From a virus: a DNA stretch of 64,000 nucleotides. The translations under genes were made by a program, and so were the position numbers. Below the pieces are notes generated by a model that was not told where the DNA came from, did no database searches, and saw only the letters and a program-made list of their open reading frames with translations. This document shows, one piece after another, positions 31,235 to 51,509 of the stretch; position 1 is the stretch's first letter, and each line of letters opens with the position of its first letter. Location: the IMG/VR virus record IMGVR_UViG_3300027909_000017; one strand, 5' to 3'.

Positions 31235-32829
31235 ATCGCATGTCGGAAGACGAAGAGAACGAGAGGGGCAGCAAGAAGAAGGGCCGGAAACGCACGCCGA
31301 CTCGGCGCGCGAACATCGCCCCGGGGCCGATGTACCCGTCCGGAACTCCGGTCGACCCGTCGACAGGTCTGCCGTACGACAATTACCCAATCGACGCGCG
31401 CACCGCTCGGCAGGTCGGTTATGACTCAGAGAGCGCGAGGGTGAACGCAGTCATGGGACACGTACAGAAGCGGAAGGCCGCGGGGGATACCAACATCCGA
31501 TTCAACGCACCCGAGCACGCGAAGTACCAGCTCGCGGTGAACGAGAATCCCGGAGCGCGGATCCGGTTCGAACAGGTCGAGCCCGTCGAGGACTACAACA
31601 TCCCGGAGTCCACGCTCGGGGCGCTACCCTCGCTCGGGAAAGCGATCGAGTACTTGAAGCGGCACCACTGGCGCGGGCAGCGCGCCGTCTACAAGTGGTA
31701 CGTCTACGACTCGACTAACTATCAAAAAGCTGCTGGTCGCATCCCATTCGACGTGCAGCAGGAGGAAGAAGTGGTGCAGCAACCTCCCGGCAACAATGGT
31801 CAGCCGCCTTATCCGGGCATGATGCCCGGGATGCCAGGTATGCCCGGTTTCGGCGTGCAAGGCACACCCGGCTTCCCTCAGATGCCCATGAACCCTTGGG
31901 GCATGGGCATGCCGATGATGCCGTTCCCGTTCGCGATGCCGTACCAGCAGCAGGCTGCGCCGCCGGTCGCGCCTCCGCAGCAGGTGCCGCCGCAACCGGC
32001 GCAGGGCCAGCCGCAGATGCCGTTCCCGTACCCGATGCCGGCCGGGATGGATCCGAATGTCGTCAACATGCTGCTTGCGCTGACGCGAGAGAATGCCGCG
32101 CTCGTTGAGGAAACGCGCCGAGCCGCGCAGCAGGCGCAGGCGGGTCAGCAGCCGGTGATGACGCCGCAGATGATGTACATGATGATGACGATGTACCCGT
32201 GGATGTTCCCGGGCATGACCGCGCAGCAACAGCAACAGCAGCCCAAAGAAGAGCCGAAACCGGAGAAGCCCAAGACGCCGATCGAGCAGATGAAGGACAC
32301 GATCGGGATGATGCAGACCGTCGCGAGCATGGGTCGCAAGTTCGCTACCGACTTCAGCCCCGAGGACGCGGAGAAGCCGGACCCGAACCGACAAGAAGTG
32401 AACGAAGACGCCTACCCGTACGTCGTGAAGGAGTTCCCGCACTGGCGCATGGTCGTGAGCAAGGACGGAGAACCCGTCGACGCGGCGACGTCGGTCGCGC
32501 ACAACCTCGACAAGGTGCAGGAAGGCGTGCGTGGCCTGTTCAAGGAGATCCGCGAGGGCGTCAAAGAGTTCATCGAGCACAAGGACAACCAGGTCGAGGC
32601 GAAGAGTCGCCACGAGCAGGAGGCCCTCGAGCGCAAGCAGGTCGAGTTGAAGCTCGCGCAGGAGCAGATCAAACAGCAGGAGGAGGCGTTGCAGCAGGGC
32701 GAGCGCATGGTGACCTTGCAAGAGCGCATGGCGCGACTCGGCATCACGCCCAACAACGCCCCAAACGGCAACGCACCCGGTAACGTGCCGCCGTCACCTA
32801 ACGGCAGCGGCGTCGCGGATCCGCAGTAA
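31231..32829 (+). CDS. hypothetical protein with Pro/Gln/Met low-complexity region and coiled coil
   Basis: 532 aa ORF; start may be ATG 31239. Confidence 0.75.
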   Translation: MNRMSEDEENERGSKKKGRKRTPTRRANIAPGPMYPSGTPVDPSTGLPYDNYPIDARTARQVGYDSESARVNAVMGHVQKRKAAGDTNIRFNAPEHAKYQLAVNENPGARIRFEQVEPVEDYNIPESTLGALPSLGKAIEYLKRHHWRGQRAVYKWYVYDSTNYQKAAGRIPFDVQQEEEVVQQPPGNNGQPPYPGMMPGMPGMPGFGVQGTPGFPQMPMNPWGMGMPMMPFPFAMPYQQQAAPPVAPPQQVPPQPAQGQPQMPFPYPMPAGMDPNVVNMLLALTRENAALVEETRRAAQQAQAGQQPVMTPQMMYMMMTMYPWMFPGMTAQQQQQQPKEEPKPEKPKTPIEQMKDTIGMMQTVASMGRKFATDFSPEDAEKPDPNRQEVNEDAYPYVVKEFPHWRMVVSKDGEPVDAATSVAHNLDKVQEGVRGLFKEIREGVKEFIEHKDNQVEAKSRHEQEALERKQVELKLAQEQIKQQEEALQQGERMVTLQERMARLGITPNNAPNGNAPGNVPPSPNGSGVADPQ

Positions 32830-32889: not shown

Positions 32890-33786
32890 GTGCAACTCCA
32901 AGAGCTTGTCACCACGATCCGACCGCACCCGTGGGGCGAGGCCGGTGTCCGGAGCTCGCTGGATGAGGTTGCGCGCTACGTCTCGAAAGGCATCAGCAAC
33001 CCGTACGTCCGCACGTTCGCGATCGACAAACTAGCCGAGGCGCAGGCTCGCGGCATTAATGTCGACACGTCGCGCGGACGCGCCGAGGTGCTGCTCGAGG
33101 TGTTTCAGCGCGAGAAACTGTGGGTGCCGGACCCGGTCAATGCCGAGTACATGCCCGAGGCTCACCTCATCGCGTGCGACCCCAACAAGCCGCACGTGAC
33201 GCCCGAGGGCAAGACGCTCGTCTGCAAGAGGGGCGACGACTGCGACGGTAAGACGATCGGACTCGGCGCGTGCTTCGGCGCGGTCGGGTTGAACAGTGTG
33301 GTCGTCGGGCACGGTTACGACCCCGATGGTGGTCGCATCGAGCACGTGCTGACGATGGTCTGGCTCGGGAAGCGTTGGCACTACGCCGACCCGAGCTTGA
33401 AAGAACTGAAACTTGGCCAGTGCGTGCCGTTCACGCGCGAGCGCGTGCTGAGCGTGCCGAACGTGCAGGTGCTCTGCGACGCGAGCTCGTGCATGACCGG
33501 CCAGGAGACGCGCTTCAACCCCGACGACATGAACTTCGTCAACGAGGGGATATTCGTCGGCGTCGCCGGCGCGCCGAACTCGCTCGCGGGAGTGCGCTCG
33601 CCCATCGTCTGGGTGACGAACGAAAAGCCGATGGTGCAGTGGCTCGGTTCTATCGGCGAGACCGCGGCGCAAAACAACCAGACCGCGCAGCGCTTCACCA
33701 CACTGGAGAAGATCTTGCTCGCGGGAACTTTCATCAGCGCGACCACGCTCGCGCTCGAGCTCTACGACCGCACGAGGCAGCTATGA
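32890..33786 (+). CDS. transglutaminase-like cysteine protease with C-terminal TM
   Basis: Triad motifs GDDCDG, IEHVL, WHYADPS; tag IVWV..VQWLG before a hydrophobic C-terminus. Confidence 0.75.
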   Translation: MQLQELVTTIRPHPWGEAGVRSSLDEVARYVSKGISNPYVRTFAIDKLAEAQARGINVDTSRGRAEVLLEVFQREKLWVPDPVNAEYMPEAHLIACDPNKPHVTPEGKTLVCKRGDDCDGKTIGLGACFGAVGLNSVVVGHGYDPDGGRIEHVLTMVWLGKRWHYADPSLKELKLGQCVPFTRERVLSVPNVQVLCDASSCMTGQETRFNPDDMNFVNEGIFVGVAGAPNSLAGVRSPIVWVTNEKPMVQWLGSIGETAAQNNQTAQRFTTLEKILLAGTFISATTLALELYDRTRQL

Positions 33787-34724
33787 ATTGGGTAAATCCT
33801 ATCAAGATCCCGGCAGAATTGAAGCGTCTTGGTCTCGGTCAAGCAGCCGATCCGAATCTAGACGCTTGGGCACAGATGATCACCGCGCTTCGCGACAGCG
33901 TCCAACTTTCTTGGAACGCTGCGAAGGCTTCGTACCTGGGTCTGAAGAAGGTCCGCGAAGATCTCGGTCTGCCGTTCATCGCGGCGCCGAGCGGAGAAAC
34001 TGATGCGAATGTTGGAGCGTGGGGCGCCGACCTCGACCAACAAGCCGTCGACTTGCAGGCCATCAACACGATCCTGATCAACGCCGCTAACGACGTCCTC
34101 GAGAACAAGCGCAAACTCATCTGGGATCCGACTCTGAAAGAGTTTGTCATTGAGGCGTTGCCCGACGACGTCGTGCGCGTGGAGAACGTCGGCGGCAAAC
34201 CGACGCTGGTCCTGATCACGACCGGCGCCGCCACTCACAGCACCGGCACGATCGGTATCGCGCCGCTGGCGATCGGTGCTGGCGTCGCGGTCTTGGCCGT
34301 CGTCGCCGGCATCGGTCTCTACTCGTTGGTCAAGGACACGAACGCGACGATGCGCTCGCTCGCGGAGCAGAAGACGACGCAGACGCTCTCAAACAATCAA
34401 GTGAAGATGATCGAGAAGGGCGCTACGCCGGAGCAGGCGGCGCAAGCCACCAAAGCGGTCACCGACGGAGTCGCGTCGATTAAAGAAGCTGACGCGAAAC
34501 TCGAGCAAGCGAAGGCCGGAGGAAAAGACGTCGACGCTTGGACTAACTTGATCAAGACCGGCGGATTCATCGCGCTCGGTCTCGGCGTTCTCTACATCGT
34601 CGCGCAACTCGTACCGAAGGGCGGTGTGCGTAGCACAGCACCGGCGATGCCGATGCAAGAGAACCGTCGGCGTCGTCGGCGTCGGTCGAATCGGACCAGG
34701 ACTCGAGCCGCCTACGCGAGGTGA
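33783..34724 (+). CDS. tagged virion membrane protein (MNWV), two TMs, QEN-poly-Arg tail
   Basis: ATG 33783 coupled; TMs IAPLAIGAGVAVLAVVAGIGL and FIALGLGVLYIVAQLV. Confidence 0.75.
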   Translation: MNWVNPIKIPAELKRLGLGQAADPNLDAWAQMITALRDSVQLSWNAAKASYLGLKKVREDLGLPFIAAPSGETDANVGAWGADLDQQAVDLQAINTILINAANDVLENKRKLIWDPTLKEFVIEALPDDVVRVENVGGKPTLVLITTGAATHSTGTIGIAPLAIGAGVAVLAVVAGIGLYSLVKDTNATMRSLAEQKTTQTLSNNQVKMIEKGATPEQAAQATKAVTDGVASIKEADAKLEQAKAGGKDVDAWTNLIKTGGFIALGLGVLYIVAQLVPKGGVRSTAPAMPMQENRRRRRRRSNRTRTRAAYAR

Positions 34725-34730
34725 TGAGCC

Positions 34731-35276
34731 GTGGCACGTCCTCAGATCGCAAAAACCACCGTGTGCGACAGTCGCGAATGTCGCCGCGTAAACCTGCTCG
34801 TTCGTGGCACGCACATCGAGCTCGTTTCTGTCGAGCGAGTGCGCGAGGTCGGTTACCACAAACTCGACTACTATAAGATGCCGAGTGACGTGAAGTTTCC
34901 AGCGGAATATGTGCTGGTTCAGGACACTTCAGGCGAAGCGCTGCGACGCTGCGACTTCTACATCGTGCGCGCGAAGTCGAGTGGGTCGATCGTGGGCCAC
35001 GATACGAGTGACAAAGTTCTGCGTGATGCAGAAGAGTACTTTCGAAACGGACGACGCATGTCTTCGACGAATGTCGACATCCCAAACGGAGCGTGGCATC
35101 GTCTCGGGAAGGTACAGTTCATTCGGTATCGCCGCTGGGGACATGCGAAGGGTTTTTACGAGCACGAGTACTCACCGACCGTCGTCTTGCAACAGACGGC
35201 GAGCGGAGCGCGTGCGTGGCGACTCCCACTACCTGGTGGATGTCAAGTTGACAGTAGAGGTTTCGGTTGGCCATGA
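34731..35276 (+). CDS. hypothetical protein in the morphogenesis module
   Basis: ORF between membrane and core-like genes. Confidence 0.7.
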   Translation: MARPQIAKTTVCDSRECRRVNLLVRGTHIELVSVERVREVGYHKLDYYKMPSDVKFPAEYVLVQDTSGEALRRCDFYIVRAKSSGSIVGHDTSDKVLRDAEEYFRNGRRMSSTNVDIPNGAWHRLGKVQFIRYRRWGHAKGFYEHEYSPTVVLQQTASGARAWRLPLPGGCQVDSRGFGWP

Positions 35277-35277
35277 T
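35241..35277 (+). promoter_or_regulatory. promoter candidate for core/capsid genes
   Basis: Palindrome TGTCAA-G-TTGACA; TTGACA-N18-CATGAT. Confidence 0.45.
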
Positions 35278-37054
35278 GCCGCTGACCAAGTTGGCTGCGC
35301 GCGTGCAAGCGCGTTTGGATGAAGCGAATCTGGAGGAGAATCCGGTGGCACAAGCCGTCAAAGAGAATCGCCGTCGCAAGGGCAGCAAGAAACCGAGCGC
35401 TGCTCAGTTGCGTGCACGCGAGAAGTTCGCGCGCATGGCTCGGTCAGGAAAGTTCAAGCGCAAGCGTCGCAAGAAGGAACTCGCGCAGAATCGAAAGATG
35501 AGCAAACGGCGTAGCCGGCGCATGGAGGACAATCGCCGGAATCGCACCTACCAAGCAAACCGGGGACGCAAGTACGAGTCGAATCAGAGCGCCCCCGCGA
35601 AGTCACAACAGGAGAATGCATCCATGGCCGCCGAACTCGAAGAGAACGCAAGGAAGGGCAAGAAGAAGGGCAAGAAGCGCCGGAAGGGGCGTCGCAAGGG
35701 TCGTAAGACCAAGCGACGCGCCAAAGCCCGTTCTCGAAAAGGCGGACGTCGCAAGAGTCGTCGTGGCAAGCGCAGGGCCGTGCGTACGGTCAAGACCCAC
35801 GTCGTGTCTTTGCCGCGCAGCACCGTCGCCGTCACGGAGAAGAAGCGTCGTCGCCGCAAGAAGAAGGCCGGCAAGAAGAAGCGTCGTGGCGGAGGTCGTC
35901 GGAAACGCGCGCTGATGGAGAACCCGTCTGGATTCTTCAGCGGCCCGGGACCGATGGCTCTCTACGAGAACCAAGCCGGCCCGTTCACGATGGCCGGACT
36001 CCGCGCCTACGGCGTCGCCGCCGTCGGTGTCGGCCTCGGTTTGATCGTCGCCGACGTGACGGATCGCTTGATCGCGACCCGCACGCCGAAAGACGGTCGC
36101 AACCCGTGGTACGGCAAGGACGCGGCCGGAGCGATCCGGATGCGCCCCGATGCGTGGCGTCTCGGCGGACAGGCCGGTGGTGCGGTTGCCGGTATGGCGG
36201 TCGCCTACTGGGCGCGCGGTCGCGGCATCATCCCGTGGCTCGTCGGCGGCATCGCTGTCGGCTTCGGCGCGAACCTGGTCAAGCAACTCTGGGACTGGTA
36301 CCTCGCTCCGACTGTCATGAAGGTCGAGCTCGCGGACGCGGGCAAGCCCAGCATCGGCAATCGGCTCTACTCCCTGGAGCAGAATTACATCCAGGAGCAG
36401 GTCGCGAAACTCTTCGCGCAGCGTCCGTTCGTCGCGTCGCTCGCGCCGGGACAGAACGACCCGCCCCAGATCACGTCCCCGCTCGGCGGTGGCGGAACCG
36501 GCGCCGGTCCGATGTACCAGCTCTCGGGTCAGCCCGGAGTTGGTCGCCCCGGACAGAACGCGCGCTCGGTCATCCGCACCGGTCGCGTCGGCACGTGTCA
36601 GGAGTGCGGTTGCTCGGACGGTTGCTACAGCAACTGCCCGACGCTGTGCCCGGACTGCCCGGAGTACAACCAGAACACGATGTGCCGTCACCAGGTGCAA
36701 GCCGGCGACGACATCAACGCGTTCGCTTCGGCGGGTGGCGTGTCGGTCGAACAGATCCTCGCGCTCAACCCGAACACTCCGTGGACACCCGGCAGCGTCG
36801 TCTTCCTCCCTTACGGAGTTTGCTCCGCGATGGAGAAGGGCTCGTTCAACCCGGTGGTCGCTGAGCTCAATCCCGTCGCTCCTCCGAGCCCACTGCCCGT
36901 CCCGCTCACCGCGGAGACGATGGTGGAACCGCCGGGTGGTCCGGTCGCGCCTCCGGCTGCCTTCGCGGCTCCCGGCGTGTACGGCACACCCATGAACGGC
37001 GACGATCACATCAAGAAGGCGATGATCTTCTCGGGCGGTCTTCGCAGGGACTGA
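35267..37054 (+). CDS. Lys/Arg-rich membrane protein with Cys cluster and LysM domain (core-like)
   Basis: Basic N-third with repeated xEN motifs; central TMs; CQECGC...; HQVQAGDD...GVSVEQILALNP...PGSVVFLP at about 36686-36811. Confidence 0.75.
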   Translation: MAMMPLTKLAARVQARLDEANLEENPVAQAVKENRRRKGSKKPSAAQLRAREKFARMARSGKFKRKRRKKELAQNRKMSKRRSRRMEDNRRNRTYQANRGRKYESNQSAPAKSQQENASMAAELEENARKGKKKGKKRRKGRRKGRKTKRRAKARSRKGGRRKSRRGKRRAVRTVKTHVVSLPRSTVAVTEKKRRRRKKKAGKKKRRGGGRRKRALMENPSGFFSGPGPMALYENQAGPFTMAGLRAYGVAAVGVGLGLIVADVTDRLIATRTPKDGRNPWYGKDAAGAIRMRPDAWRLGGQAGGAVAGMAVAYWARGRGIIPWLVGGIAVGFGANLVKQLWDWYLAPTVMKVELADAGKPSIGNRLYSLEQNYIQEQVAKLFAQRPFVASLAPGQNDPPQITSPLGGGGTGAGPMYQLSGQPGVGRPGQNARSVIRTGRVGTCQECGCSDGCYSNCPTLCPDCPEYNQNTMCRHQVQAGDDINAFASAGGVSVEQILALNPNTPWTPGSVVFLPYGVCSAMEKGSFNPVVAELNPVAPPSPLPVPLTAETMVEPPGGPVAPPAAFAAPGVYGTPMNGDDHIKKAMIFSGGLRRD

Positions 37055-37140
37055 TCGAAGAGACGTCAACAAGAGTTCTGAGTTTTTGAACAAAGGGCCC
37101 GGGGCGGAAGAAGCCGTCTCGGGCAGGAGAAAGAAAGACA

Positions 37141-38355
37141 ATGGCCAATATCGACAATCGATCCGGTGCGTGGAAGAAGTGTGCCACCATCGGTGAAGCT
37201 GCTGCGGTGCCCTGGTCGGCGCTTACGGCAATCATCAGCGACCAGACGCAGATCAAACTTCCGATGACTCCCGAGGAGTTTCAGAAGTTCGAAGGCAACA
37301 TCAACTTCTTCGATGTCGATACCGAGGCCAATCCGTGCCCGGGACGGCAGATCACGGGAGCGTTTACCGGCGCTCGCGTCGAGACGCCGTTCCTCGCGCT
37401 CGGAGCCTTCTTGATCCTCATCGGCGAGGGCTACTCCAAGACGCTGCCCGGAGCGCTCATCTCGGAACCGGCTTCCGAGTCGAGTACCCCGTGCTTCGAC
37501 GGGTGCATTCCCGTTGGAGGTCTCGGTGCAGACGCAGCCGCGCGCAACGCGGCTCTGTACTGGGGTGGACCGACTCAGCTCTTCCTCGAATCGTTCAGCC
37601 AGGCGTACCGCTTCCAGGTGCGCATGGGTCGCCGCATCGTCGTGGTCGACGAGCTCGCCGACCACATCGGTGTGTGGCCCCGCGCGAAGGCGTTCTGCGG
37701 AGCGAGTGACTCACTCGCCCCGATGATGCCCGAGATTCAGGAAGTGAACTCGGTCCTCCACGACAAGGACTTCGACCGGCTCTTCATCCCGCAGAACGTC
37801 GTCGTGGGCGATGCGGGAACCGAGTGCATCGGCGCACCGACCGCTGGAGTGACCTACGGCCACTTCACGCAGTCGGGTATCGCGCACAAGGCGTACATGT
37901 TCCAGCGGCCGCTGCTCTACGTTCCGACGACCACCATCCGGATTGGTCTGACGCGCGTGGAACAAGACTGCTGCTTCCTCGACTCGATGCGGCGCCAAGC
38001 GGTGCTCGATCTCGGCGTCGTGCCGACGCCCGCACCTGGCATCCTCAGCGAGACCTTGGACTGCGGCGCCGGCTACTCGTCGGCGTACACCATCCCGGGT
38101 GGCTGCCTCACCTACGGCGTCGGACTCTTCGGCGTCGAGCTCTTCCCGAGCGCGTGCATCGATTACCTGAACTACATCCTCCCCGAGAGCTTGCAGTTTC
38201 AGATGCTGCTCGAGAACAGCTTCATGCAGGGTCTGCTCCAGGCCAACTCCCTCAAGGGCGCCGGCCAACAGATGCTCAACGGCCTCACGCCGCAGGGCAA
38301 GCAGAACCTCAAGGCGCTGCTCGAGCGCAAGCCGATGGCGATCCTGGACGAGTAA
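37141..38355 (+). CDS. putative major capsid protein, single jelly-roll type
   Basis: AGGAG RBS with flanking hairpins; strand pattern NFFD..PFLALG..YRFQVRMG..DE..IG..RPLLYVP..IRIGL..VGLFG like P23-77/SH1-type MCPs (by eye). Confidence 0.55.
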   Translation: MANIDNRSGAWKKCATIGEAAAVPWSALTAIISDQTQIKLPMTPEEFQKFEGNINFFDVDTEANPCPGRQITGAFTGARVETPFLALGAFLILIGEGYSKTLPGALISEPASESSTPCFDGCIPVGGLGADAAARNAALYWGGPTQLFLESFSQAYRFQVRMGRRIVVVDELADHIGVWPRAKAFCGASDSLAPMMPEIQEVNSVLHDKDFDRLFIPQNVVVGDAGTECIGAPTAGVTYGHFTQSGIAHKAYMFQRPLLYVPTTTIRIGLTRVEQDCCFLDSMRRQAVLDLGVVPTPAPGILSETLDCGAGYSSAYTIPGGCLTYGVGLFGVELFPSACIDYLNYILPESLQFQMLLENSFMQGLLQANSLKGAGQQMLNGLTPQGKQNLKALLERKPMAILDE

Positions 38356-38393
38356 TCGTCCAAGCGCTCGCGTCACACACTAGCAAAAAAGGC

Positions 38394-38421
38394 GCGGGCG
38401 CTCGGTCACTCGGGCGCCCGC
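38394..38421. terminator. GC-rich hairpin after the putative MCP gene
   Basis: GCGGGCGC/GCGCCCGC stem; A6 tract at 38385-38390. Confidence 0.55.
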
Positions 38422-38455
38422 TCCAGTATTCTATTCCGGAAAAAGTGGTGAACCG

Positions 38456-39124
38456 ATGATTGGAGGAAAAAGGGTCAGGGAACTCGGTGTCGGGGACATC
38501 CCGCTCATCGCCCAGTACGACCCGCGCCTCGCGGTTGCGCTGGCATACGGCGGAGCGTTCGCGCCGAAAGGCGTGATCCTCAACGGCATCGCGTCCGCCG
38601 TCGGTGGTTGGGAGATCTTGACGCTCCGAGCAACGTTTCAGAGCGGCACGGCCAACCAGACCATCCCGGTCACGCTGCCGGACGTGGCTGAGGTCGACAT
38701 GTGGGTGCGCGACATCCGCGCGACCGTGCGTCGACCGAACTACTTCCCCGGCAACCCGCTGCGCGATATCGCGAACACCGCGTACGCGCAAAACCCGGAC
38801 ATCGACTTCACGCTCGAGGTGAAGACGTGGTGCAACTTCGCCATCAGTCTCGACCCCGTGCCGCTCGGCTTGATCGCCGAAACGTTCGAGTGTGTTTGCC
38901 CGGTCGGCCTCGTGCTCACGTGCGGTGCGTCGATCATCGGCAGCTTCACGAACACGCGCGCGCTCGTCGACCCGGACGAGATCCCGACCGAGGTCACCGT
39001 CGCGTTGCACGTCACTCGTCTGCCGCGCACGAACTGCTACGCGCAGATCGACATCGCCACAGCACTCAGCGTGCTCAAAGAACAGAAGATCCTGCCCGAC
39101 ATCGATCCTGGTTGCTGCGGGTGA
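38456..39124 (+). CDS. putative second single jelly-roll capsid protein
   Basis: DMWVRDI..DFTLEV..SLDPVPLGLI..LVLTCGASIIGSFTN..EVTVALHVTRL. Confidence 0.55.
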   Translation: MIGGKRVRELGVGDIPLIAQYDPRLAVALAYGGAFAPKGVILNGIASAVGGWEILTLRATFQSGTANQTIPVTLPDVAEVDMWVRDIRATVRRPNYFPGNPLRDIANTAYAQNPDIDFTLEVKTWCNFAISLDPVPLGLIAETFECVCPVGLVLTCGASIIGSFTNTRALVDPDEIPTEVTVALHVTRLPRTNCYAQIDIATALSVLKEQKILPDIDPGCCG

Positions 39125-39135
39125 GGTGGTGATGG

Positions 39136-40086
39136 ATGGCGCAGAGTCGAGCAGATGCGAGGAAGCACGAGTCGGAGATCACGGTAGCGGCTGAGCTACT
39201 ATCCGAGACGCCCGAGCTCGCCCACCTCTCTCGAGACTACTGCGGTTGGCGCTCGCGCTGTCCCGTCGTCGTCGACATCGTCAGTTCCGCGTTCGACATC
39301 GACAACATCGGTCTCGGCAGCTCGCCGTACACCGGCGACATGAGCCGCACCGGCATCGCGGTACCTCTCGCGCCGACGGTCAACCAGCAGCACCGTTACC
39401 TGTTTCGTCTCGCGACCATGGAGGTGCCGAGCGGGGCGGCGGCGGTCATCCTCGGAGTCCACACCGCGCAGACGCTGCGCACCGTGCTCGAGGGGACCGA
39501 CGGTGAAGGCTCGAGCTGTTTTCGACCGCTCGAGATCTTGGTGCGCGAGCCGTTCTGGCAACCGCCGAACGGCAACATCTCGTGGCACTTGAGGCAGTGG
39601 CAGTTGCGCGAGCACCGTCGCTTGCTGACCGCCGGCCCGGCAGCGGCCGGCTTCGACATCCACGTGGACGGCAATGACACCGCGCTCATGTTCGCCGAAA
39701 CCGTGTCGTTCGCGCCGTACACCCCGCCGTTCTCCGGCATGCCTCCAGGGCGCGCGATCGGTGCACTCGGCACGTGGCGCGACAATCGCGACTGGGAGGT
39801 GCACATCCCCATCTTCGGTCCGAAGAAGATCGGCCTCTGGGCGTCAGTGCACCAGTTCGACTCGTTGCTCATCTGCCCGACAACCGCACCGACCGACCTC
39901 GGCGCCATCTCGCAAGAGGACCGCTTCCTGTACGCGTTCGGTTCGACCGGGACCGGCGTCCAATACGGTCGGGTGGCTGGCGCCATCACCGTGGAGCTCT
40001 GGCCGAATTGCAACGACCTGAGAGACCACCTGCGCGCCGGGGGTAAGCTTTTCCAACCGAGTTCAACAAGGAGATTGCAGCCGTGA
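39136..40086 (+). CDS. putative jelly-roll minor capsid/penton protein
   Basis: Beta-rich, no TM, third gene of the capsid-like trio. Confidence 0.4.
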   Translation: MAQSRADARKHESEITVAAELLSETPELAHLSRDYCGWRSRCPVVVDIVSSAFDIDNIGLGSSPYTGDMSRTGIAVPLAPTVNQQHRYLFRLATMEVPSGAAAVILGVHTAQTLRTVLEGTDGEGSSCFRPLEILVREPFWQPPNGNISWHLRQWQLREHRRLLTAGPAAAGFDIHVDGNDTALMFAETVSFAPYTPPFSGMPPGRAIGALGTWRDNRDWEVHIPIFGPKKIGLWASVHQFDSLLICPTTAPTDLGAISQEDRFLYAFGSTGTGVQYGRVAGAITVELWPNCNDLRDHLRAGGKLFQPSSTRRLQP

Positions 40087-41153
40087 GCAAAGTCAATTGG
40101 ACGGGACGCATCAGTCCGGACAACCGCCGCGGCTCTGTGGGAGCTCCCCCGCCCGTGTTCTGGTGGTACTTCAAGGTCTACGCGAAGTACGGAGGCGAGG
40201 TCGTGCACTCGGAGGGCCCGAGCGGCATGACCGGAGCTCAGGGCAACGCGCGCATCTTGATGCTCGGTCAGCAGTACGGGACCGAGTACGTGGTGTGCGG
40301 CACGTACCTCGGCGGCTACGGCGGCAAGAGCACGTACTGCACTTACGACGGTGGCGTCACGACCAAGTACGGTGAGCCGCCGGCTTTCCCGCCGGTGCCG
40401 ACGTCGCCTCCGGTGCCGATCATCCCGCTCTTCTTCAACACGCCTCGCGTCCCGTATCGACCGTTTTTCGGTCCCGCTACCCTCAATCCATTCACGCCGA
40501 TCTTTCCCGGCTACCGCACCCGCGTCTCGTGGGTCGCGCCGTCGCCGCGTCCGTTCTTCGTGTTCGGAGCGCGCAGGGTCGAGTGGCTCGGCAGCCGCCT
40601 CGGTCAGAACGCTTGCAACGACCTGAACAACGCGGTCGCGAGCGCGAAGGCTTCGAGGAACGGGTTGCAGCAGAACTTGAGCGCGGTGAACAACGCGTAC
40701 AACCAAGCGGTGCAAGCCGGTAATCAAGAGGCCATCGCGGATCTCTACGCGACCAAGCTCGGAATCCAGGCCGACCTCGCGAAGCTCGACGCCGACATCG
40801 TCGCGCTCGAGGCTCAGGCGAAGGCCGCGTGCGCGCCGCCCCCGCCGTCGACCGGCTGCACGTCGGACGCTGACTGCGGTCCTGCTGGCTTCAAGTGCGT
40901 CGACGGGAACTGCGTTCCGTGGGACTGCTTCAAGGACTCGGACTGCGGAGCCGGTCTGAAGTGCGACGGCAAGGGCAAGTGCATCCCCGCGACCACGACC
41001 GCGAGCGTCGGCGGTGGTGGGATCTGGCTGCTCGCCGCCGCGGCGGCTGCCGCGATCTTCTTCGCGATTAAACCACCGAAGCTCCCGAAGACTGCCGCCG
41101 GTCGGTTGCAAGAGAACCGTCGGCGTCGACGTCGACAGGCGGCCGCCGCTTGA
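40083..41153 (+). CDS. doubly tagged membrane protein with Cys-rich repeats and QEN-poly-Arg tail
   Basis: KVNWT at N-terminus, RVSWV..RRVEWLG internally, coiled coil, two CxxDxDC repeats, TM. Confidence 0.8.
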   Translation: MSKVNWTGRISPDNRRGSVGAPPPVFWWYFKVYAKYGGEVVHSEGPSGMTGAQGNARILMLGQQYGTEYVVCGTYLGGYGGKSTYCTYDGGVTTKYGEPPAFPPVPTSPPVPIIPLFFNTPRVPYRPFFGPATLNPFTPIFPGYRTRVSWVAPSPRPFFVFGARRVEWLGSRLGQNACNDLNNAVASAKASRNGLQQNLSAVNNAYNQAVQAGNQEAIADLYATKLGIQADLAKLDADIVALEAQAKAACAPPPPSTGCTSDADCGPAGFKCVDGNCVPWDCFKDSDCGAGLKCDGKGKCIPATTTASVGGGGIWLLAAAAAAAIFFAIKPPKLPKTAAGRLQENRRRRRRQAAAA

Positions 41154-41168
41154 GCGGGAGGAGGCTAA

Positions 41169-41546
41169 GTGCGGGTCACTTGGGTCAAAACAAACCGGCG
41201 AGTCGAATGGCTCGGTAAGATTCCGAGCGGGCGCGTCGGTCTGACCGACCAGGAGCGCGTCAACGAGGCGCGGTCGTACTTCCCTGGGTGCTACTCGAAG
41301 GCATTCGATGATTGCATCGATAAAGGCTTGGTGACCGCCTACCCGAATTGTGCGCGAATCCTCGAGCTCTGGGGCAACGACAAGACGGCACCCGTCTCAC
41401 TCCAACTCGACGCCGTGATCGATCAGATGCCGTATTGTTCCGCGCCGAGCACGGCAACGTCGTCGAGCGACAACACGGTGATCTGGGTCGTCGGCGCGGT
41501 GGCGCTCGCCGCCGTCGCTGGTTACGCGCTCGCGGGAGGTTTCTGA
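41169..41546 (+). CDS. tagged tail-anchored Cys-containing protein
   Basis: MRVTWVKTNRRVEWLG...C-terminal TM. Confidence 0.8.
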   Translation: MRVTWVKTNRRVEWLGKIPSGRVGLTDQERVNEARSYFPGCYSKAFDDCIDKGLVTAYPNCARILELWGNDKTAPVSLQLDAVIDQMPYCSAPSTATSSSDNTVIWVVGAVALAAVAGYALAGGF

Positions 41547-41758
41547 TGAGGGTCAACTGGGTCGGAACCAGTCGCGAACTCGAGTTTCACCGCGCGCAGC
41601 GAACGATGCTCAGCGGACCACGTCGTCTCGGTGTCAGTGCCGGCGGCGTCTCGGTCGCGACATCCGGCATCATCGCGCCGCTCGTCGTGGTCGGCATCTT
41701 GGCGCTCGCCATCTACGGCGGCGTGAAGGCGATCGGGAAACTACCAGAGGGGCGTTGA
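41546..41758 (+). CDS. tagged small membrane protein
   Basis: MRVNWVGTSRELEF; ATG overlaps TGA; TM. Confidence 0.75.
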   Translation: MRVNWVGTSRELEFHRAQRTMLSGPRRLGVSAGGVSVATSGIIAPLVVVGILALAIYGGVKAIGKLPEGR

Positions 41759-41761
41759 TGC

Positions 41762-42034
41762 ATGCGCGTCGACTGGGTGCAGAGTCGACGCCGCGTGGAG
41801 TGGCTGGGCGCGCTCCCGTCAGGCGAGAGTGCGGAAGCTCTCGTCGGCGGCGACTTAACAGCGTTGCCCGTCGTGACGTTTCATACCGGCTTGCGTGCTG
41901 GACTCATCGGTCTCGGTCTGTACGTGGCAGGTTTTCGAGGCGAACAACTCGTGAAGGGTGCGATCGCCGGTGCGGTCGGCATCGAGGCGTTCGTGCTAGC
42001 GTGGGCTCTATACGAACGAGGTAAGAAAAAATGA
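41762..42034 (+). CDS. tagged small two-TM protein
   Basis: MRVDWVQSRRRVEWLG. Confidence 0.8.
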   Translation: MRVDWVQSRRRVEWLGALPSGESAEALVGGDLTALPVVTFHTGLRAGLIGLGLYVAGFRGEQLVKGAIAGAVGIEAFVLAWALYERGKKK

Positions 42035-42783
42035 ACGCCGTCAATTGGGTAAACGCACGAGGACAAACTTCGGCGGTTGGTCCGAAAGGTCGCAAGGCGC
42101 GTCGCGTGCAGTGGCTAGGTGCGCCCGCGTTCGGCGTCGGCGCGCTCGACGTCGCCTCGAACGGGTTCGCGAAGGGGCTGCTCGCGTCGTGGAACGCGAC
42201 TGACGGCGCGAACTGGATCAATCAGTACGGCTTGCAGCCGGGTGACGTCGACCCGAACGCCTGGTACGACCGAGACGGCTACGTCCTCGCCGGCTTCGTC
42301 AAGTGGTGGAACGGCACGAACGCGCAGAAGCTTCCCGAGCCGGGGACGAAGAACGGCGTCGCTTGGGTCGACCTGACGCAGCAGCACTTGACCACGCTCC
42401 AGAATTGGGCGCTGTCGAAGGGTATCATCAACCCGGGTCAGCTCCCGGCTTCGCCGCAGCCGACTCCTGTGCCGATGGACATGTCGACGTGCCTGGCCAA
42501 TTGCCAGAACACGTACGGGCTCGATCCGATCTCGCTCGCGACGTGCGCCGCTGCGTGCGCTCAGTCGTTCCCTCTCACTCCTCCACCGGTGCCGATCTCA
42601 CCGACACCGACGACGCCGGCGCCGACTACCCCGCCCTCCACTCCTCCGCCTACCATCCCGACGGCGCCCGTCACGCCGGGCACCACGACGACCAGCGAGA
42701 GCAAGACGAACGTCTGGCCCTGGGTGATCGGTGGCACTGCTTTGGTGGCACTCGGTGCGTTGGTTCTTTCTGGAGGGAAGTGA
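42031..42783 (+). CDS. tagged tail-anchored protein with Pro/Thr linker
   Basis: AVNWV...RRVQWLG; paralogous domain in next gene. Confidence 0.8.
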   Translation: MNAVNWVNARGQTSAVGPKGRKARRVQWLGAPAFGVGALDVASNGFAKGLLASWNATDGANWINQYGLQPGDVDPNAWYDRDGYVLAGFVKWWNGTNAQKLPEPGTKNGVAWVDLTQQHLTTLQNWALSKGIINPGQLPASPQPTPVPMDMSTCLANCQNTYGLDPISLATCAAACAQSFPLTPPPVPISPTPTTPAPTTPPSTPPPTIPTAPVTPGTTTTSESKTNVWPWVIGGTALVALGALVLSGGK

Positions 42784-42786
42784 GCC

Positions 42787-43926
42787 ATGCGCGTCGAATG
42801 GGTACAGAGGCGTCGAGTCCAGTGGGTGCGTGAGACACGCGCTCAGCTCGGTGTTGGTCTGATCGGCATTCTTGAATGGGAAGACCCCGTCGAGAAGAAC
42901 CCGTCCGGCGCGCAGCTTCACGCCAAGAACATTCTCTGGCTGTGGGGAAAGGCGAATCCGACGTACAGCCCGATCGCCGGCTACGGGACTGCGGCCGACC
43001 TCACGAGCAATTGGATGGATCGCGATCGTCAGATGATGTCCGCGTTCTGCAACTGGTGGAACATCACGCACCCGAGCCAGGCGATCCCCATCTCGCAAAA
43101 CGTCACGAACGCGAACATCAAGGCGCTCGACCAGTGGGTCAAGGAAGAGAACGCCAAAGCGTCGCAGGCTCAACCGATCACACCCGGGCAATTCCCTCCG
43201 GGTAGTGGACAGCCGCAACCGCAGCTCACTTTTCCTCTGCTCACTCTCACGCCGCTCGGCTGGCCTCCCGGCGTGCCGTACCCACCGCCGAAACCTTCCT
43301 GGTGGCCCGACGGGCTCAATTACCCACCGGTCGGCGACTCGTGGGCGCCCGTTCCTCCTGGTTGGTGGAATCTCTCGCCGAACCCGCTGCCGTGGCCGCC
43401 GCCGAAACCTGACGGCTGGCCCACGTTCCCGTACCCGCTCCCGCCCACGGCGCTCGCGTCGGTCATGTCGTGCGATCAGGTGTGCGACGCTCAGTTCGGA
43501 ACCAAGGGCACGACTCCGAACCAGACCGCGCTCGACGTCTGCAAGAAGGGTTGCTCGACGGCTGCGACTCCGCCTCCGCTGACGTTCCCGATCGGTCCGC
43601 AGAATCTTCGCCCGCTCCCACCCGACACGGGGACGGCTCCGAGCACGGGGACGACGTCCACGCCGAAGTCGAGCGTCGTGCCGATCGTGCTCGGTCTTGC
43701 AGCGCTCGGCGGCGTCGCGTGGTTGTTGATGCGCGGCAGCGGCACGACCTTGCTCGAGAACCCGCAGTTCAGCTTTCTCGGCTGGACGTTCGGTGCCCAC
43801 AAAACGGGCAGGGGCAAGGTCAAACCGCCGAAGATGAAGCTCACGAAGAAGGGTAAGAAGGAATTCGCCGCGGAATGGAAGCGCGTGTTTCCCACACTAC
43901 CCGTCCCGGATATTGACGAGCCATGA
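42787..43926 (+). CDS. tagged protein with Pro/Trp repeats, TM and LEN-basic tail
   Basis: MRVEWVQRRRVQWV; LLENPQ after TM. Confidence 0.8.
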   Translation: MRVEWVQRRRVQWVRETRAQLGVGLIGILEWEDPVEKNPSGAQLHAKNILWLWGKANPTYSPIAGYGTAADLTSNWMDRDRQMMSAFCNWWNITHPSQAIPISQNVTNANIKALDQWVKEENAKASQAQPITPGQFPPGSGQPQPQLTFPLLTLTPLGWPPGVPYPPPKPSWWPDGLNYPPVGDSWAPVPPGWWNLSPNPLPWPPPKPDGWPTFPYPLPPTALASVMSCDQVCDAQFGTKGTTPNQTALDVCKKGCSTAATPPPLTFPIGPQNLRPLPPDTGTAPSTGTTSTPKSSVVPIVLGLAALGGVAWLLMRGSGTTLLENPQFSFLGWTFGAHKTGRGKVKPPKMKLTKKGKKEFAAEWKRVFPTLPVPDIDEP

Positions 43927-44387
43927 AAGTTGATTGGGTCCGTCCGATGCAGAATGCCTCGCGCTTCGGCGCGCTGGGGCAAGCTGCGACTCCACCGGCG
44001 CCGCCGGGGTGGACGGGTCCGTGGCCGCCTCCGAAACCCCCGTTCTGGGACCTCACCGGGCTGCCCTGGCTGCCCACGGCCCTCCCTGCGCAGCGACCGC
44101 CCTTGTACCCGCCCACGCTGCCCTGGCCGCCTCCGCCGCCCCCGTACTGGCCCGCGGGGTGGGACTGGCCGCCGCAGCCGCCGGCGAGCTGGACGACTCC
44201 GCCTCCGGTGCCTGCCTCGACCCCCGTAACACCCCCCTCCGGCGGCGCGGGGCCGGCACCGACTTCTTCTGTCTCGAGCTCGGGCGGCGACAGCGTCGCT
44301 TACGTGATCGGTGGCGTGCTGGTCCTCGGACTGTTCGCACTTGTCGCGCTCGGCGGCATGGCGTCGCAGGAGGAAGATGCGGCGTGA
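43923..44387 (+). CDS. tagged Pro/Trp-rich tail-anchored protein
   Basis: MKVDWV...GALGQ; WPPPKP repeats; TM. Confidence 0.8.
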   Translation: MKVDWVRPMQNASRFGALGQAATPPAPPGWTGPWPPPKPPFWDLTGLPWLPTALPAQRPPLYPPTLPWPPPPPPYWPAGWDWPPQPPASWTTPPPVPASTPVTPPSGGAGPAPTSSVSSSGGDSVAYVIGGVLVLGLFALVALGGMASQEEDAA

Positions 44388-45097
44388 CTCACCCGCTGGA
44401 CCTCTTCATGCCCGTCGGCGCCGTCGCGATGCCGAGCGCTTGGTTCGATTCCGGATGCGGTGGACCGCGTGCGCGGTGGACCGCTGAAGGTCTGATCGAG
44501 GTCGAGGGCGAGGGTGCGAAGTCGCGTGCACTGCCCGCGGACGTGAAGAAGTGGCGTGACCTGATCATTACCAAGTCGACCAAGTACGGCGTGCCGGCAC
44601 AGTTCACGACCGGCATCATGGGTCTCGAGAGCAGCGGAGATCAGAACGCGAAGTCGCCCGCGAACGCGTGTGGGCTGATGCAGCTCATCCCGTCGACCGC
44701 GTCTGACCAAGCCGGCCGCCCCGTCACGTGCGCGGAGCTCTTGAGCGACGCCGACCTCAACGTTGATCTCGGCACGAAGTTCTTGGCCGAGCTCCTGACG
44801 AAGTACGGCAACAACCCGATCAAGGTCGCGGCCGCCTACAACGCCGGCTCGGCGAAGTGTGGGATGAGCAGCAAGTGCACCTCACCGAATCGATGGAACT
44901 TGCTCACCGACTGCGGTCAGAGCGGCGCGTCCGCTGATTATCCCGGTATCGTGTTCGGCTACACGAACGCGGCCGCAGCGTGGCTCGGCGCCAATCCAAC
45001 GGTGAGCCCGTCTTCGTCAGGACCGAGTCTCGGCGCGCTCGTGCTCGGTACCGCGGCCGCAGGCGGTCTGCTCTGGGCATGGGGAGCATTTAAATGA
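44384..45097 (+). CDS. tail-anchored lytic transglycosylase (SLT family)
   Basis: IMGLESSG, ACGLMQLIPSTA, NVDLGTKFL, AAYNAG; C-terminal TM; GTG coupled. Confidence 0.85.
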   Translation: MTHPLDLFMPVGAVAMPSAWFDSGCGGPRARWTAEGLIEVEGEGAKSRALPADVKKWRDLIITKSTKYGVPAQFTTGIMGLESSGDQNAKSPANACGLMQLIPSTASDQAGRPVTCAELLSDADLNVDLGTKFLAELLTKYGNNPIKVAAAYNAGSAKCGMSSKCTSPNRWNLLTDCGQSGASADYPGIVFGYTNAAAAWLGANPTVSPSSSGPSLGALVLGTAAAGGLLWAWGAFK

Positions 45098-46131
45098 ACC
45101 GCGTCAATTGGTGCGTTCCTATCCGGCGTCTCGAGTTTCTCGGCGCGTACACGGGCTACGACAAGATCAAGGACAACGCGCTCGCCAAGGAGATCATCGG
45201 GCGACGCGGCGCTGTCGACGAGGAGTCGCTCAAGGCGTACGGCAAAGTCGGCGGCACGATCGCGGGTGCGGGACTCTGCGCGGCGACTGGCGTAGGCGCA
45301 ACGGTTGCGGTCGGGTGCGGCATCATCGGCGGCATCATCGGCGAGTGGATCGCGAGCAAGATCCCCGTCGCGCACGGTTCGACGATGGAAGACCTCGTCG
45401 GCGACACGATCAACAACTTCATCAAGCCGAAGGCGAAGCTCTCCGCCAACGGCATGTACGCGGTGCGTGCCTACCTCACGATGCGCGACCTCGCGATCAC
45501 GAAGGGCCTCGCGACTGACGCTTCGTTGACCGCGGCCGGTATTCCTCCGGCACCGGTTGACCCGCGCTGGGCGCCGAACGCGCAGCGGTACTCGCGAGCG
45601 AAGAGCAACTACTCGGACGTGCTCGTCCAGCTCGCGCAGTCATCTGCGTGGCAGAAAGAGTGCAAGGCCGCGAAGAACATCAAGGCCGTGAATTCCAAGT
45701 TCTCGTGCCAGGACTACCTCTATGCCGTCTACTACGAGGGATACATCGGCCCGGTCGCGGCGCCGGGCGAACCGATCGACTGGTACGCGGTCGGGCGCGA
45801 CGAGATCGCGTTCTATTGGAAGGTGCTCAAGTACAAGAAGGACTGCGAGGCGTGGATTCGCGGGCCTCAGTTCATCGGCACGAAGCTCGACCCGAACTTG
45901 ACGTGCCCGATGAATGCGCCGAGTACGCTGGCGAAGATCTACCTCGACAAGCTGAACGCGACGGTGAAGTGGCCCGCTAAGGGCAGCCCGCTACTGCCCG
46001 ACGTCCTCGACATCTCTCAACACATCTTTGGTTCGTCCGGTACCACCAGTACTCCGTCGAAGACAAGTCCGGTGCTCGTGGTCGGAGGACTCGCCGCCGC
46101 TGCTGCGGCGGTGTGGTACTTCTTCCTGTGA
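45094..46131 (+). CDS. tagged membrane protein with glycine-zipper segment
   Basis: RVNWC..RRLEFLG; GGTIAGAGLCAATGVG..GIIGGIIG; C-terminal TM. Confidence 0.8.
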   Translation: MNRVNWCVPIRRLEFLGAYTGYDKIKDNALAKEIIGRRGAVDEESLKAYGKVGGTIAGAGLCAATGVGATVAVGCGIIGGIIGEWIASKIPVAHGSTMEDLVGDTINNFIKPKAKLSANGMYAVRAYLTMRDLAITKGLATDASLTAAGIPPAPVDPRWAPNAQRYSRAKSNYSDVLVQLAQSSAWQKECKAAKNIKAVNSKFSCQDYLYAVYYEGYIGPVAAPGEPIDWYAVGRDEIAFYWKVLKYKKDCEAWIRGPQFIGTKLDPNLTCPMNAPSTLAKIYLDKLNATVKWPAKGSPLLPDVLDISQHIFGSSGTTSTPSKTSPVLVVGGLAAAAAAVWYFFL

Positions 46132-46718
46132 GGGTGAACTGGGTCGGAGCCGTCAACGGCCCGACGGTCTTGATCGGAGACTCGCTCGCGGTCGGGCTCG
46201 CGCAACCGCTCAAGGCGGAGTTCGGCGCCGAGCCGTTTCAAGCGTTCGCGAAGGGCGGAACGGCGGTCTCGCAGTGGCTCAACGGCTCGCAGGCGGGCGA
46301 GCTCGCGAAGGCCCTCGAGCTCGGCCCGAAGCGCGTGCTCGTCTCGCTCGGCACGAACGACACGAACTCGAAGGTGCCCGCGGACCAGCTCAAGCAGCAG
46401 GTCGCCGCTCTCGTGCAGAAGATTCGCGACGTCGGCGCCGAACCGGTGTGGCTCAGCCCGGGAAAACTGCCGTGGCCGTATCCGGACTTGATCGCGGCCG
46501 TCGCGTTCTCGAACGCGCGCGTGGTCATGCAGCCGGACGTCAAGAAGTTCGACGGCATTCACCCGACCGGCGACGGCTACAAGGAGTGGGCGAAGGCGAT
46601 CTATCAGGACTTGAACCCGTCGGCGACGATGGGCACGAGCTCGTCGACGACGAAGACGATCACCAACTTCGCGGTGCTCACCGGTCTCGCGTTGCTCACG
46701 TGGTGGGTGCTGTCGTGA
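46128..46718 (+). CDS. tagged tail-anchored SGNH/GDSL hydrolase
   Basis: MRVNWV; LIGDSLAVG, GTND, DGIHPT; TM. Confidence 0.85.
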   Translation: MRVNWVGAVNGPTVLIGDSLAVGLAQPLKAEFGAEPFQAFAKGGTAVSQWLNGSQAGELAKALELGPKRVLVSLGTNDTNSKVPADQLKQQVAALVQKIRDVGAEPVWLSPGKLPWPYPDLIAAVAFSNARVVMQPDVKKFDGIHPTGDGYKEWAKAIYQDLNPSATMGTSSSTTKTITNFAVLTGLALLTWWVLS

Positions 46719-47566
46719 AAGTCGATTGGGTGCAGACGAAGCGTGCTCACCAGCGCGTGGAGTGGCTCGGTCAGACCGTCGAGCTCTTCCAACCCACGAC
46801 GACGCTCGAGGACATCGTGCCGGAGCAGCGGCCCAAGTTCGAGGCGCTCATCGCGTACGCGAAGTCATTCGGCATGACGATCAAAGTGCGCTCGGCGGGC
46901 CGCACGTGCGCGACGCAGCAGTCGTACTACGACCTCGGCGAGCAGATCACGCAAGCGAACTTGTGCCGTTCCATGCACGTGTTCGGTCACGCCGTGGACT
47001 TCGACCTCGTGCCCAACACCTGCCTCTCGTACACGAAGCTTGGCGAGTGGTGGGAGAAGCAGGGCGGCGTCTGGGGCGGCCGCTGGAAGCAGTTCGGCCC
47101 GTGCGGGGACATGGGACACTTCCACATCGGGATGAACGGCGCGCAGGCCGTGCCGACGTCGCTGTGCCCGGCAAACGTCACCGAGTCCGAGTGCAAGAAG
47201 ATCCGCGAAGACTACCTCACCAAGGCGTTTGGTCAGGCGACGCCGACAACCTCGACGAGCTCGCGCATGGGCATCCTGTCAGGACTCTTGATCGCGGGCG
47301 CTGCCGCGGCACTCCTCTACGCGACGTTGAATGTACGGGCGCCGGTCCGCGTGCGCGAGAACCGAGCGAGGACTGTTGAGCAAGCGTACAAAGATCTACT
47401 TGAAAAATTCGACGAAGAGATGGCTCTCGCGCAAGAAGCGGAAGATCAAGGTCTCTACGAACGAGCCGACGTACACTCCCGAGCGGCCGACGCCGCGGAC
47501 CGACGAGCCGCCAAACTCTCGCAAGAAGTGATCGACGGCAAACGCCGTTGGGAAGATCCGTACTGA
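46715..47566 (+). CDS. tagged M15-family (L-Ala-D-Glu-type) peptidase with TM and REN tail
   Basis: MKVDWV..RVEWLGQ; RTCATQ, SMHVFGHAVD, WGGRW, DMGHF. Confidence 0.85.
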   Translation: MKVDWVQTKRAHQRVEWLGQTVELFQPTTTLEDIVPEQRPKFEALIAYAKSFGMTIKVRSAGRTCATQQSYYDLGEQITQANLCRSMHVFGHAVDFDLVPNTCLSYTKLGEWWEKQGGVWGGRWKQFGPCGDMGHFHIGMNGAQAVPTSLCPANVTESECKKIREDYLTKAFGQATPTTSTSSRMGILSGLLIAGAAAALLYATLNVRAPVRVRENRARTVEQAYKDLLEKFDEEMALAQEAEDQGLYERADVHSRAADAADRRAAKLSQEVIDGKRRWEDPY

Positions 47567-47577
47567 GGAGAAAAAAC

Positions 47578-47874
47578 ATGAACAAGCAACCGAATGGAAA
47601 AGTTGGCAACCTCCAGGTGCTGAACTCGATGAAGGCTGCTGTCGCGCAGCAACGAGCCGTGGGCAGCGTCCCTGTTCAATGGGTCGATAGTTGGATCGCG
47701 CAGCTCCAGGCCGAATACGGCGGATACGGTGGTTACCCGTACAGCGGTTACCCGTACACGTACTCCCCGCTCCTGCCCTACTCGCTCGTCGACTTTCACC
47801 CCGTCGACACGTTCTTCTCGCCGTTCTTCACCGAGCGCGTGAACTTCCGCGTGACCTCGTCGACGATGAAGTGA
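47578..47874 (+). CDS. small Tyr/Gly-rich protein
   Basis: GAGGAG RBS. Confidence 0.65.
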   Translation: MNKQPNGKVGNLQVLNSMKAAVAQQRAVGSVPVQWVDSWIAQLQAEYGGYGGYPYSGYPYTYSPLLPYSLVDFHPVDTFFSPFFTERVNFRVTSSTMK

Positions 47875-47948
47875 GGCGGTCAGTTGCCTCCGCAGTTGGC
47901 GGAGGAATTGGCGAAGCAGTTCGCTGAGCTGCGCAGGGAGAACATGAC

Positions 47949-49717: not shown

Positions 49718-49738
49718 TACGTGGTAGGATGACAAGCG

Positions 49739-50017: not shown

Positions 50018-50111
50018 CGGCGATCGTCGGCTACGCACACGAGCGGTTATCGCAGAAGTACATTCACTTCTGCTGGCTCTTGCACTTCGTAGTGAACGGG
50101 AGGTTGATGCC

Positions 50112-50950: not shown

Positions 50951-50951
50951 C

Positions 50952-51506: not shown

Positions 51507-51509
51507 CCG

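Follow-up and report, generated by a model that had tools for sequence, protein, structure and literature searches.

In a review table of tailless, membrane-containing phages most genomes are 9-15 kb, and the largest bacterial entry is SSIP-1, a tailless, membrane-containing virus with a 44-kb circular genome and a 100 nm, T=49 particle; the review credits it with two coat protein types of possible single jelly-roll fold. In SPV1, an archaeal and hyperthermophilic member of the Portogloboviridae with a 20-kb genome, the DNA is held in a nucleoprotein core, and the double jelly-roll phages related to PRD1 (Tectiviridae, Corticoviridae) have genomes of 10-15 kb. We report on a 64-kb stretch (64,000 nucleotides of IMG/VR virus record IMGVR_UViG_3300027909_000017, part of a clearly viral metagenome contig of 92,073 bp; hereafter the window, whose positions are used unless a genome is named). 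It carries a conserved five-gene cassette that encodes three proteins modelled as jelly rolls, P1, P2 and P3 (37141-40086), together with a strongly basic membrane protein and a protease-like protein; no packaging ATPase was found, and the genomes that carry the cassette are two to three times larger than the previous bacterial maximum. We consider it fairly probable that the five products form the particle-building core of an undescribed and widespread family of bacterial viruses with genomes of 73-120 kb.

The preliminary description of this DNA reported three soluble, beta-rich open reading frames (ORFs) at the centre of the module, and the coordinates, codon usage, homologues, membrane scan and structural models all confirm this. 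P1 (37141-38355; 404 amino acids, aa), P2 (38456-39124; 222 aa) and P3 (39136-40086; 316 aa) lie on the plus strand with the coordinates reported there. Their G+C content at third codon positions (GC3) is 0.83-0.85, the G+C content of the window being 64%, and database homologues number 30 for P1, 13 for P2 and 71 for P3, none of them named and none with a Pfam domain. The three proteins are soluble, with no credible membrane segment in any, and none has the N-terminal VxW motif that is present in proteins encoded downstream. Neither Pfam nor PHROGs matched the trio or the adjacent genes, P1 had no tblastn match in 50,697 phage records, and profiles of P1, P2 and P3 found nothing among all PDB sequences. 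The hhalign probabilities among the three families were below 3%, i.e., no mutual sequence relationship was detectable.

The strong ribosome-binding site and the flanking hairpins ascribed to P1 were also borne out. AGGAG is present at 37125-37129, 10 nt 5' of the ATG, and directly follows a plus-strand hairpin with an 11-bp stem (37097-37124); between P1 and P2 a G+C hairpin with a 12-bp inner stem is predicted at 38391-38424 (plus strand). The predicted folding energies were -29.6 kcal/mol (z = -3.35) for 37055-37140 and -36.4 kcal/mol (z = -2.68) for 38356-38455, and each fold was equalled by one of 200 shuffled sequences and beat the other 199. Both hairpins were missed by a simple terminator scan because they lack a T-run. 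The second hairpin is possibly a partial terminator or an RNA-stability element that separates the expression of P1.

The AlphaFold model of P1, based on 31 sequences, is beta-rich (predicted local distance difference test, pLDDT, 78.8; predicted template modelling score, pTM, 0.77), with the strands of a jelly-roll core between residues ~28 and 335, a conserved insert at ~175-300 and a C-terminal helical tail at 336-395. Foldseek searches against the PDB and viral models returned almost exclusively jelly-roll capsid proteins, among them those of SPV1, PRD1/PR772 (P3), papillomavirus (L1), Sputnik, PBCV-1 and tectiviruses as well as poxvirus D13, all with E > 1e-3. Small proteins of 142-290 aa in the AlphaFold DB and the ESM Atlas span P1 residues ~14-336, and on this ground P1 looks like a single jelly roll that carries a conserved insert and is followed by a helical tail. 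We regard it as the candidate large coat protein.

For P2, the ESM Atlas holds a model of the exact sequence (pTM 0.63), which appears as a small beta-sandwich of jelly-roll type. It resembles nameless viral protein clusters with template modelling (TM) scores of 0.53-0.56 and is also near the jelly-roll domains GOLD and PHM C-domain (TM 0.39-0.46); P2 is the candidate small coat protein. P3 is the most widely conserved member of the trio, and its AlphaFold model (43 sequences; pLDDT 83.7, pTM 0.82) is a single jelly roll with long loops and, in this subgroup, an extra N-terminal helix. Its best structural match is a penton protein, followed by microvirus F, nanovirus and satellite-virus coat proteins, SPV1 and birnavirus VP2, and it is a candidate vertex (penton) or third coat protein. 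HK97 proteins were absent from every structural match list for P1 and P3. Hence the comparison by AlphaFold and Foldseek with PRD1 P3, HK97 and other coat proteins that the preliminary description had proposed shows, at the level of models, a jelly-roll fold for P1 and P3 and not that of HK97, with a jelly-roll-type fold for P2. These assignments of specific roles to P1, P2 and P3 are plausible and fall just short of probable. Two uncharacterised AlphaFold DB entries of 252 aa each, A0A7S6MF47 in the fold list of P1 and A0A7S6MF39 in that of P3, have near-adjacent accessions and may come from one deposited genome with a related cassette.

Conservation of gene order was studied in 21 related loci, each with a P3 relative: 19 IMG/VR contigs of 5-120 kb (16 of which exceed 60 kb) and two contigs from metagenome bins. 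The order basic protein - P1 - P2 - P3 is present in all 21, and in 19 of them the protease-like gene is located a few kb upstream of the trio. Among 1.8 billion proteins, the P3 profile detected 439 cluster representatives (50% identity level), and the group is therefore diverse and common. The basic protein (35267-37054, plus strand; 595 aa) is encoded directly 5' of P1. Its N-terminal tract of ~230 aa contains up to 51% Lys+Arg per 100 aa; after it come two hydrophobic segments, then a region rich in Cys and, at the end, a weak similarity to LysM (below threshold, E 0.068); a tract with 38-53% Lys+Arg is present in 20 of 20 full-length homologues. From its sequence we propose that it is a DNA-condensing, membrane-anchored core protein. 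The protease-like protein (32890-33786, plus strand; 298 aa) has a C-terminal anchor and a Cys-His-Asp-like motif set, GDDCDG...H...DP, and matches no Pfam family. As a separate observation, a 48-nt stretch occurs at 31246-31293 and at 35633-35680 with 77% identity; it encodes an acidic-then-basic motif, EDEENERGSKKKGRKR and ELEENARKGKKKGKKR, common to the N-terminus of a low-complexity 532-aa protein and the basic 595-aa protein.

The protease-like protein ties the family to SSIP-1. A hidden Markov model of the 32890-33786 family matched SSIP-1 gp34, annotated as a structural protein, with E 1.1e-17, and in a pairwise BLASTP (2e-8) DCDG, the His and the Asp (of DP) were aligned, showing by sequence that the 298-aa protein is homologous to this virion protein. 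Among SSIP-1 proteins, the best match of the P1 profile was structural protein gp45 (hhalign E 7.7e-4, weak, over 23 residues only), in a PLTxEEF...LF motif that is also the most conserved N-terminal element of P1, and that of P2 was structural protein gp47 (E 0.025, weak). Both were reproduced with two independent profiles and are too weak to claim homology. Like the family, SSIP-1 has a cluster of small structural proteins and an integrase, the latter present in two of the related genomes; its genome is two to three times smaller, and neither P3 nor the basic protein had a detectable homologue in SSIP-1.

Genes for a tailed particle were sought in the window and in five related genomes, four of which are complete or near-complete. 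G001 (97,101 bp) is syntenic with the window and its ends overlap by ~3.7 kb, so that it represents a closed genome of ~93 kb; G003 (73,644 bp) has an exact terminal repeat of 123 bp, and the same virus was independently assembled as a 73,663-bp contig. The Pfam and PHROGs matches listed for the window include no family of terminase, portal or tail proteins, and the gene lists and precomputed Pfam matches of its contig hold no terminase or portal domain in the 10 kb on either side. With the same databases, no terminase, portal, capsid or protease was among the matches listed for all ORFs of G003, and no head or tail genes were detected in the part of G001 that extends beyond the window. Whole-record searches with Terminase_6N, TerL_ATPase, Phage_capsid, Phage_portal and Pox_A32 gave hits in none of the five genomes for any of these families, while control genomes were positive each time. 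Moreover, no real ORF of G003 or G002 has a canonical Walker A motif, the only P-loop proteins in the window are a primase-helicase and a thymidylate kinase, and elsewhere in the family they are helicases, a kinase or a RecA-like protein. The absence of terminase, portal and tail genes noted in the preliminary description thus extends to the contig gene lists and to five related genomes, where tailed morphogenesis genes would have spoken against its proposal.

Several candidates for such genes were discarded. The PHROG 'portal' and 'head maturation protease' matches in G001, G003 and the window are due to a NUDIX protein of 128 aa, and the 'head protein' match phrog_240 was not taken as a capsid gene, since it concerns a 194-aa protein in the G003 fibre cluster. 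As packaging ATPase, the P-loop protein at 29085-29654 was rejected because it is the thymidylate kinase beside ThyX. In G004 (L052), an ORF at 9943-10533 (minus strand) encodes an N-terminal part with a HerA-like P-loop, which shares 52% identity with a 'hera helicase' from a metagenome record of Caudoviricetes, and runs into an Arg-rich, out-of-frame tail. It is probably frameshifted, lies far from the cassette and has no relatives in the other family genomes, and it was therefore not accepted as a conserved component.

The region outside the window is filled by beta-helix fibre-like proteins and not by head or tail genes. In G001, the 33 kb beyond the window hold genes for an integrase, a UvrD helicase and sugar enzymes, as well as for beta-helix fibre-like proteins and additional anchored proteins. 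In G001 (L031), at 46029-51697 on the minus strand, proteins of 478, 558 and 431 aa have an 'AWFVN..TGxDxNDG' motif in common, and in one of them the unit 'GDILVWDG..W.P' recurs, a pattern typical of spikes or fibres with a beta-helix. At the equivalent position downstream of the window, its own contig has genes for 460, 332 and 515 aa, the last with DUF5661.

How does the family compare with the known virus groups? Those closest to it are SSIP-1, SPV1, the vertical single jelly-roll viruses HHIV-2, HCIV-1, SH1 (Sphaerolipoviridae) and Thermus phage P23-77, and the double jelly-roll phages. It differs from Caudoviricetes in that no HK97-fold capsid protein was found (the models of P1 and P3 are jelly rolls, and Phage_capsid gave 0/5) and in that large terminase and portal were not detected (Terminase_6N, TerL_ATPase and Phage_portal, 0/5 each). 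An FtsK/HerA-type ATPase is present in PRD1-, STIV- and P23-77-like viruses. For the Helvetiavirae (P23-77, SH1, HHIV-2), the preliminary description had suggested paired coat proteins of P23-77/SH1 type: the jelly-roll folds stand, while the pairing amounts to resemblance only, and the packaging ATPase of that group was not found (Pox_A32, 0/5). Phages with double jelly-roll coat proteins of PRD1 type differ by their packaging ATPase and protein-primed polymerase, neither of which was found here, and by their smaller genomes. SPV1 is matched at fold level only; the conserved protein with a 38-53% Lys/Arg tract beside P1 and the lack of a detected ATPase may point to a nucleoprotein core like that of SPV1. 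The family differs from this virus in host domain and genome size, in showing no sequence similarity to it and in having bacterial-type cell-wall enzymes, a transfer-messenger RNA (tmRNA) and a lysis cassette. No named relatives were found, nor any description of this family in the searchable literature, in agreement with the earlier suggestion of a new lineage; likewise, the unusually large genome claimed for it is supported by the range of 73-120 kb in the family, compared with 44 kb for SSIP-1 in the review table.

Between 33.8 and 47.6 kb the window encodes at least 11 proteins with hydrophobic anchors, consistent with the many membrane proteins claimed before. On the basis of these anchored proteins in the module the lineage, which we consider tailless, is probably also membrane-lined. 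The virion would be a tailless icosahedron in which a protein shell surrounds a lipid membrane, the latter studded with the many anchored proteins that are encoded just downstream of the trio. Its capsomers would be built from P1, the most strongly signalled gene, probably together with P2; since a penton protein is the best match of P3, this protein would be placed at the vertices or close to them. Since no packaging ATPase was found, the DNA would probably not be pumped in but condensed by the 595-aa protein through its tract of 40-50% Lys/Arg, with membrane and shell assembling around it; such condensation would resemble the SPV1 nucleoprotein core. The Cys-His-Asp protease-like protein may process virion precursors. 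As a whole, this scheme of a single jelly-roll icosahedral shell over a membrane, with no motor driven by nucleoside triphosphates and DNA condensed by a protamine-like anchored protein, i.e., a bacterial counterpart of the portoglobovirus strategy with distant ties to SSIP-1, is put forward tentatively, as one possible solution.

Several points weigh against the five genes being the core of a tailless jelly-roll particle. The absence of head, tail and packaging genes rests on profile searches, which can miss very divergent proteins, and several large G003 proteins (e.g., 613, 552, 549 and 631 aa) have no assigned fold. The virion ATPase of SSIP-1, gp40, has no counterpart in the family. Furthermore, the replication genes resemble those of tailed phages in type, 'Phage tail protein' is the automatic name of two AlphaFold DB neighbours, the language-model neighbours of P3 are CBM96 domains, and the topology modelled for P1 may be a single roll plus insert, a stack of two rolls or a double jelly roll. 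Such data raise the question of whether we are dealing with a very divergent tailed phage, of which HK97 capsid, portal and terminase escape the profiles and the trio represents decoration, cement, baseplate or fibre parts. Besides the replication genes, those for nucleotide metabolism are typical of Caudoviricetes, related clusters carry the automatic taxon label Uroviricota, the fibre proteins have short domains in common with tailed-phage tail proteins (Gp80, phrog_21962), and jelly-roll cement and tail proteins are among the structural matches (7dou, 9rkv, 8h89). However, a canonical Walker A motif is missing from every real ORF of G003 and G002, both of them complete or near-complete, yet known tailed phages need a terminase ATPase, and we know of no tailed phage without one. 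The five head and packaging families gave 0/5 with positive controls, the PHROG matches to 'portal' and 'protease' are a NUDIX domain, the universally conserved core is the trio and not any HK97-like gene, and one core protein is shared with the tailless SSIP-1. Taken together, we find a tailed phage unlikely.

A tailless but pleomorphic or enveloped particle, such as a membrane vesicle with a protamine-like nucleoprotein inside and with the trio on it as matrix, spike or carbohydrate-binding proteins, would agree with the lack of a detected packaging motor, the very many membrane-anchored proteins and the strongly basic candidate DNA-binding protein; the structural matches at fold level only, and the CBM96 carbohydrate-binding modules as feature neighbours of P3, also fit. 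Against this, three conserved soluble jelly-roll proteins in fixed order, with the strongest expression signals on the first, are what one usually sees with shell proteins. Icosahedral membrane viruses provide the best matches, with their shell and penton proteins, and SSIP-1, the sole cultured relative with a common virion protein, is a T=49 icosahedron. We see this as the least improbable of the three alternatives discussed here, and still an unlikely one. The last alternative keeps the icosahedral shell and concerns the topology of P1, which would form a double jelly-roll trimer of PRD1/PM2 type, with P2 and P3 as penton and minor capsid protein, in a giant, ATPase-less double jelly-roll offshoot. 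Single jelly-roll proteins of 135-240 aa span P1 residues ~14-346 with equal or better scores, which fits one roll with an insert, the TM-scores of P1 to PRD1 P3 are only ~0.2 (root-mean-square deviation 12-15 Å), and no A32/FtsK-type ATPase was found; a double jelly roll is, by a small margin, the least likely of the three. Our preferred reading remains the particle-building core of a tailless virus family.

Downstream of the trio, a run of 11 plus-strand genes (40083-47566) starts with the gene right after P3. Ten of the 11 encode an N-terminal VxW[VTC] motif, and most of these proteins end in a hydrophobic anchor. The only gene without the motif is the ORF at 44384-45097, with an SLT domain; the GDSL and M15-peptidase proteins of the run do bear it. 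SLT, Lipase_GDSL_2 and Peptidase_M15_4 are its precomputed Pfam matches. We propose, judging from sequence features, that the products of the run are membrane-associated virion proteins. In the wider region 40083-52016, 12 proteins (ten from the run plus those at 48754 and 51510) begin with V-x-W-[VTCL] within the first eight residues, and six of these V-x-W proteins have a second, RRVEWL-like motif. Six proteins, five anchored ones and the basic 595-aa protein, have an x-E-N site with R, P or Q as the next residue. These V-x-W and x-E-N elements could be sorting or processing signals, possibly read by the Cys-His-Asp protein at 32890-33786. Further downstream, tandem paralogues of ~190 aa (50369-50950 and 50952-51506) have a Gly/Ser linker and a beta-rich C-terminal domain, and further copies are located in G001 (43962-44516 and 39692-40255) beside beta-helix fibre-like proteins; they may be receptor-binding knobs.

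The gene order in the window is early genes, a replication and nucleotide block, the tmRNA, a 20-kb block without family matches, a lysin and a sugar-modification block. The replication block encodes a primase-helicase, an SF2 helicase, a PD-(D/E)XK nuclease, a family A polymerase and a DHH protein, and the lysin, which has a peptidoglycan-binding domain, adjoins a small membrane protein. The tmRNA gene, predicted with ARAGORN (12087-12430, plus strand; tag peptide ANDNAIADVAKAA), is positioned between the primase-helicase and GroES-like genes. The GroES-like co-chaperonin ORF (12313-12822, plus strand; likely true start ~12535) reads MNLRPLPDKVIIKR...EGGIIIPE; the PHROG 'co-chaperonin GroES' match (E 1.5e-22) came from a window-wide scan and was assigned to this ORF by eye. 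The gene of the 540-aa PD-(D/E)XK nuclease contains, at 14424-14708, seven copies of a 27-nt repeat that encodes a Pro/Gln/Phe/Ala-rich nonapeptide. Two 415-aa ORFs with equal GC3 were considered as repeats and rejected, since they are not repeats.

Among the nucleotide genes are those for dCTP deaminase, MazG, NUDIX, ThyX and thymidylate kinase. The ThyX-type thymidylate synthase (28147-29097; PHROG E 8.9e-70, the ORF being assigned from a sequence motif) overlaps the start of the thymidylate kinase (29085-29654; phrog_2107, E 5.9e-13), and together with the other three they appear to form a full dTTP-supply block.

With regard to host and lifestyle, nothing points to the myxobacteria named as probable hosts in the preliminary description. 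The metagenome bins that hold relatives are labelled as other groups (Gemmatimonadaceae, Parcubacteria, Nitrospira and Planctomycetales), and such labels are not host evidence. No integrated copy was found in 185,579 species-representative genomes, which gave only binned free viral contigs. Tyrosine integrases are present in G001 (33824-35401) and in G003, and the family is therefore probably temperate.

The family gives SSIP-1, so far an orphan, its first relatives. Its members have a polymerase of their own, as well as genes for nucleotide metabolism, tmRNA, GroES and sugar modification, and yet, as modelled, a jelly-roll shell. Current pipelines label such viruses as tailed phages, and the five-gene cassette could be used as a marker to find them. 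If our reading is true, the size range of bacterial viruses with this build would at least double, and a motor-less single jelly-roll lineage would deserve a high-rank taxon. It would also mean that large genomes can be enclosed without a packaging ATPase, which is treated as a hallmark of both realms of large double-stranded DNA viruses.

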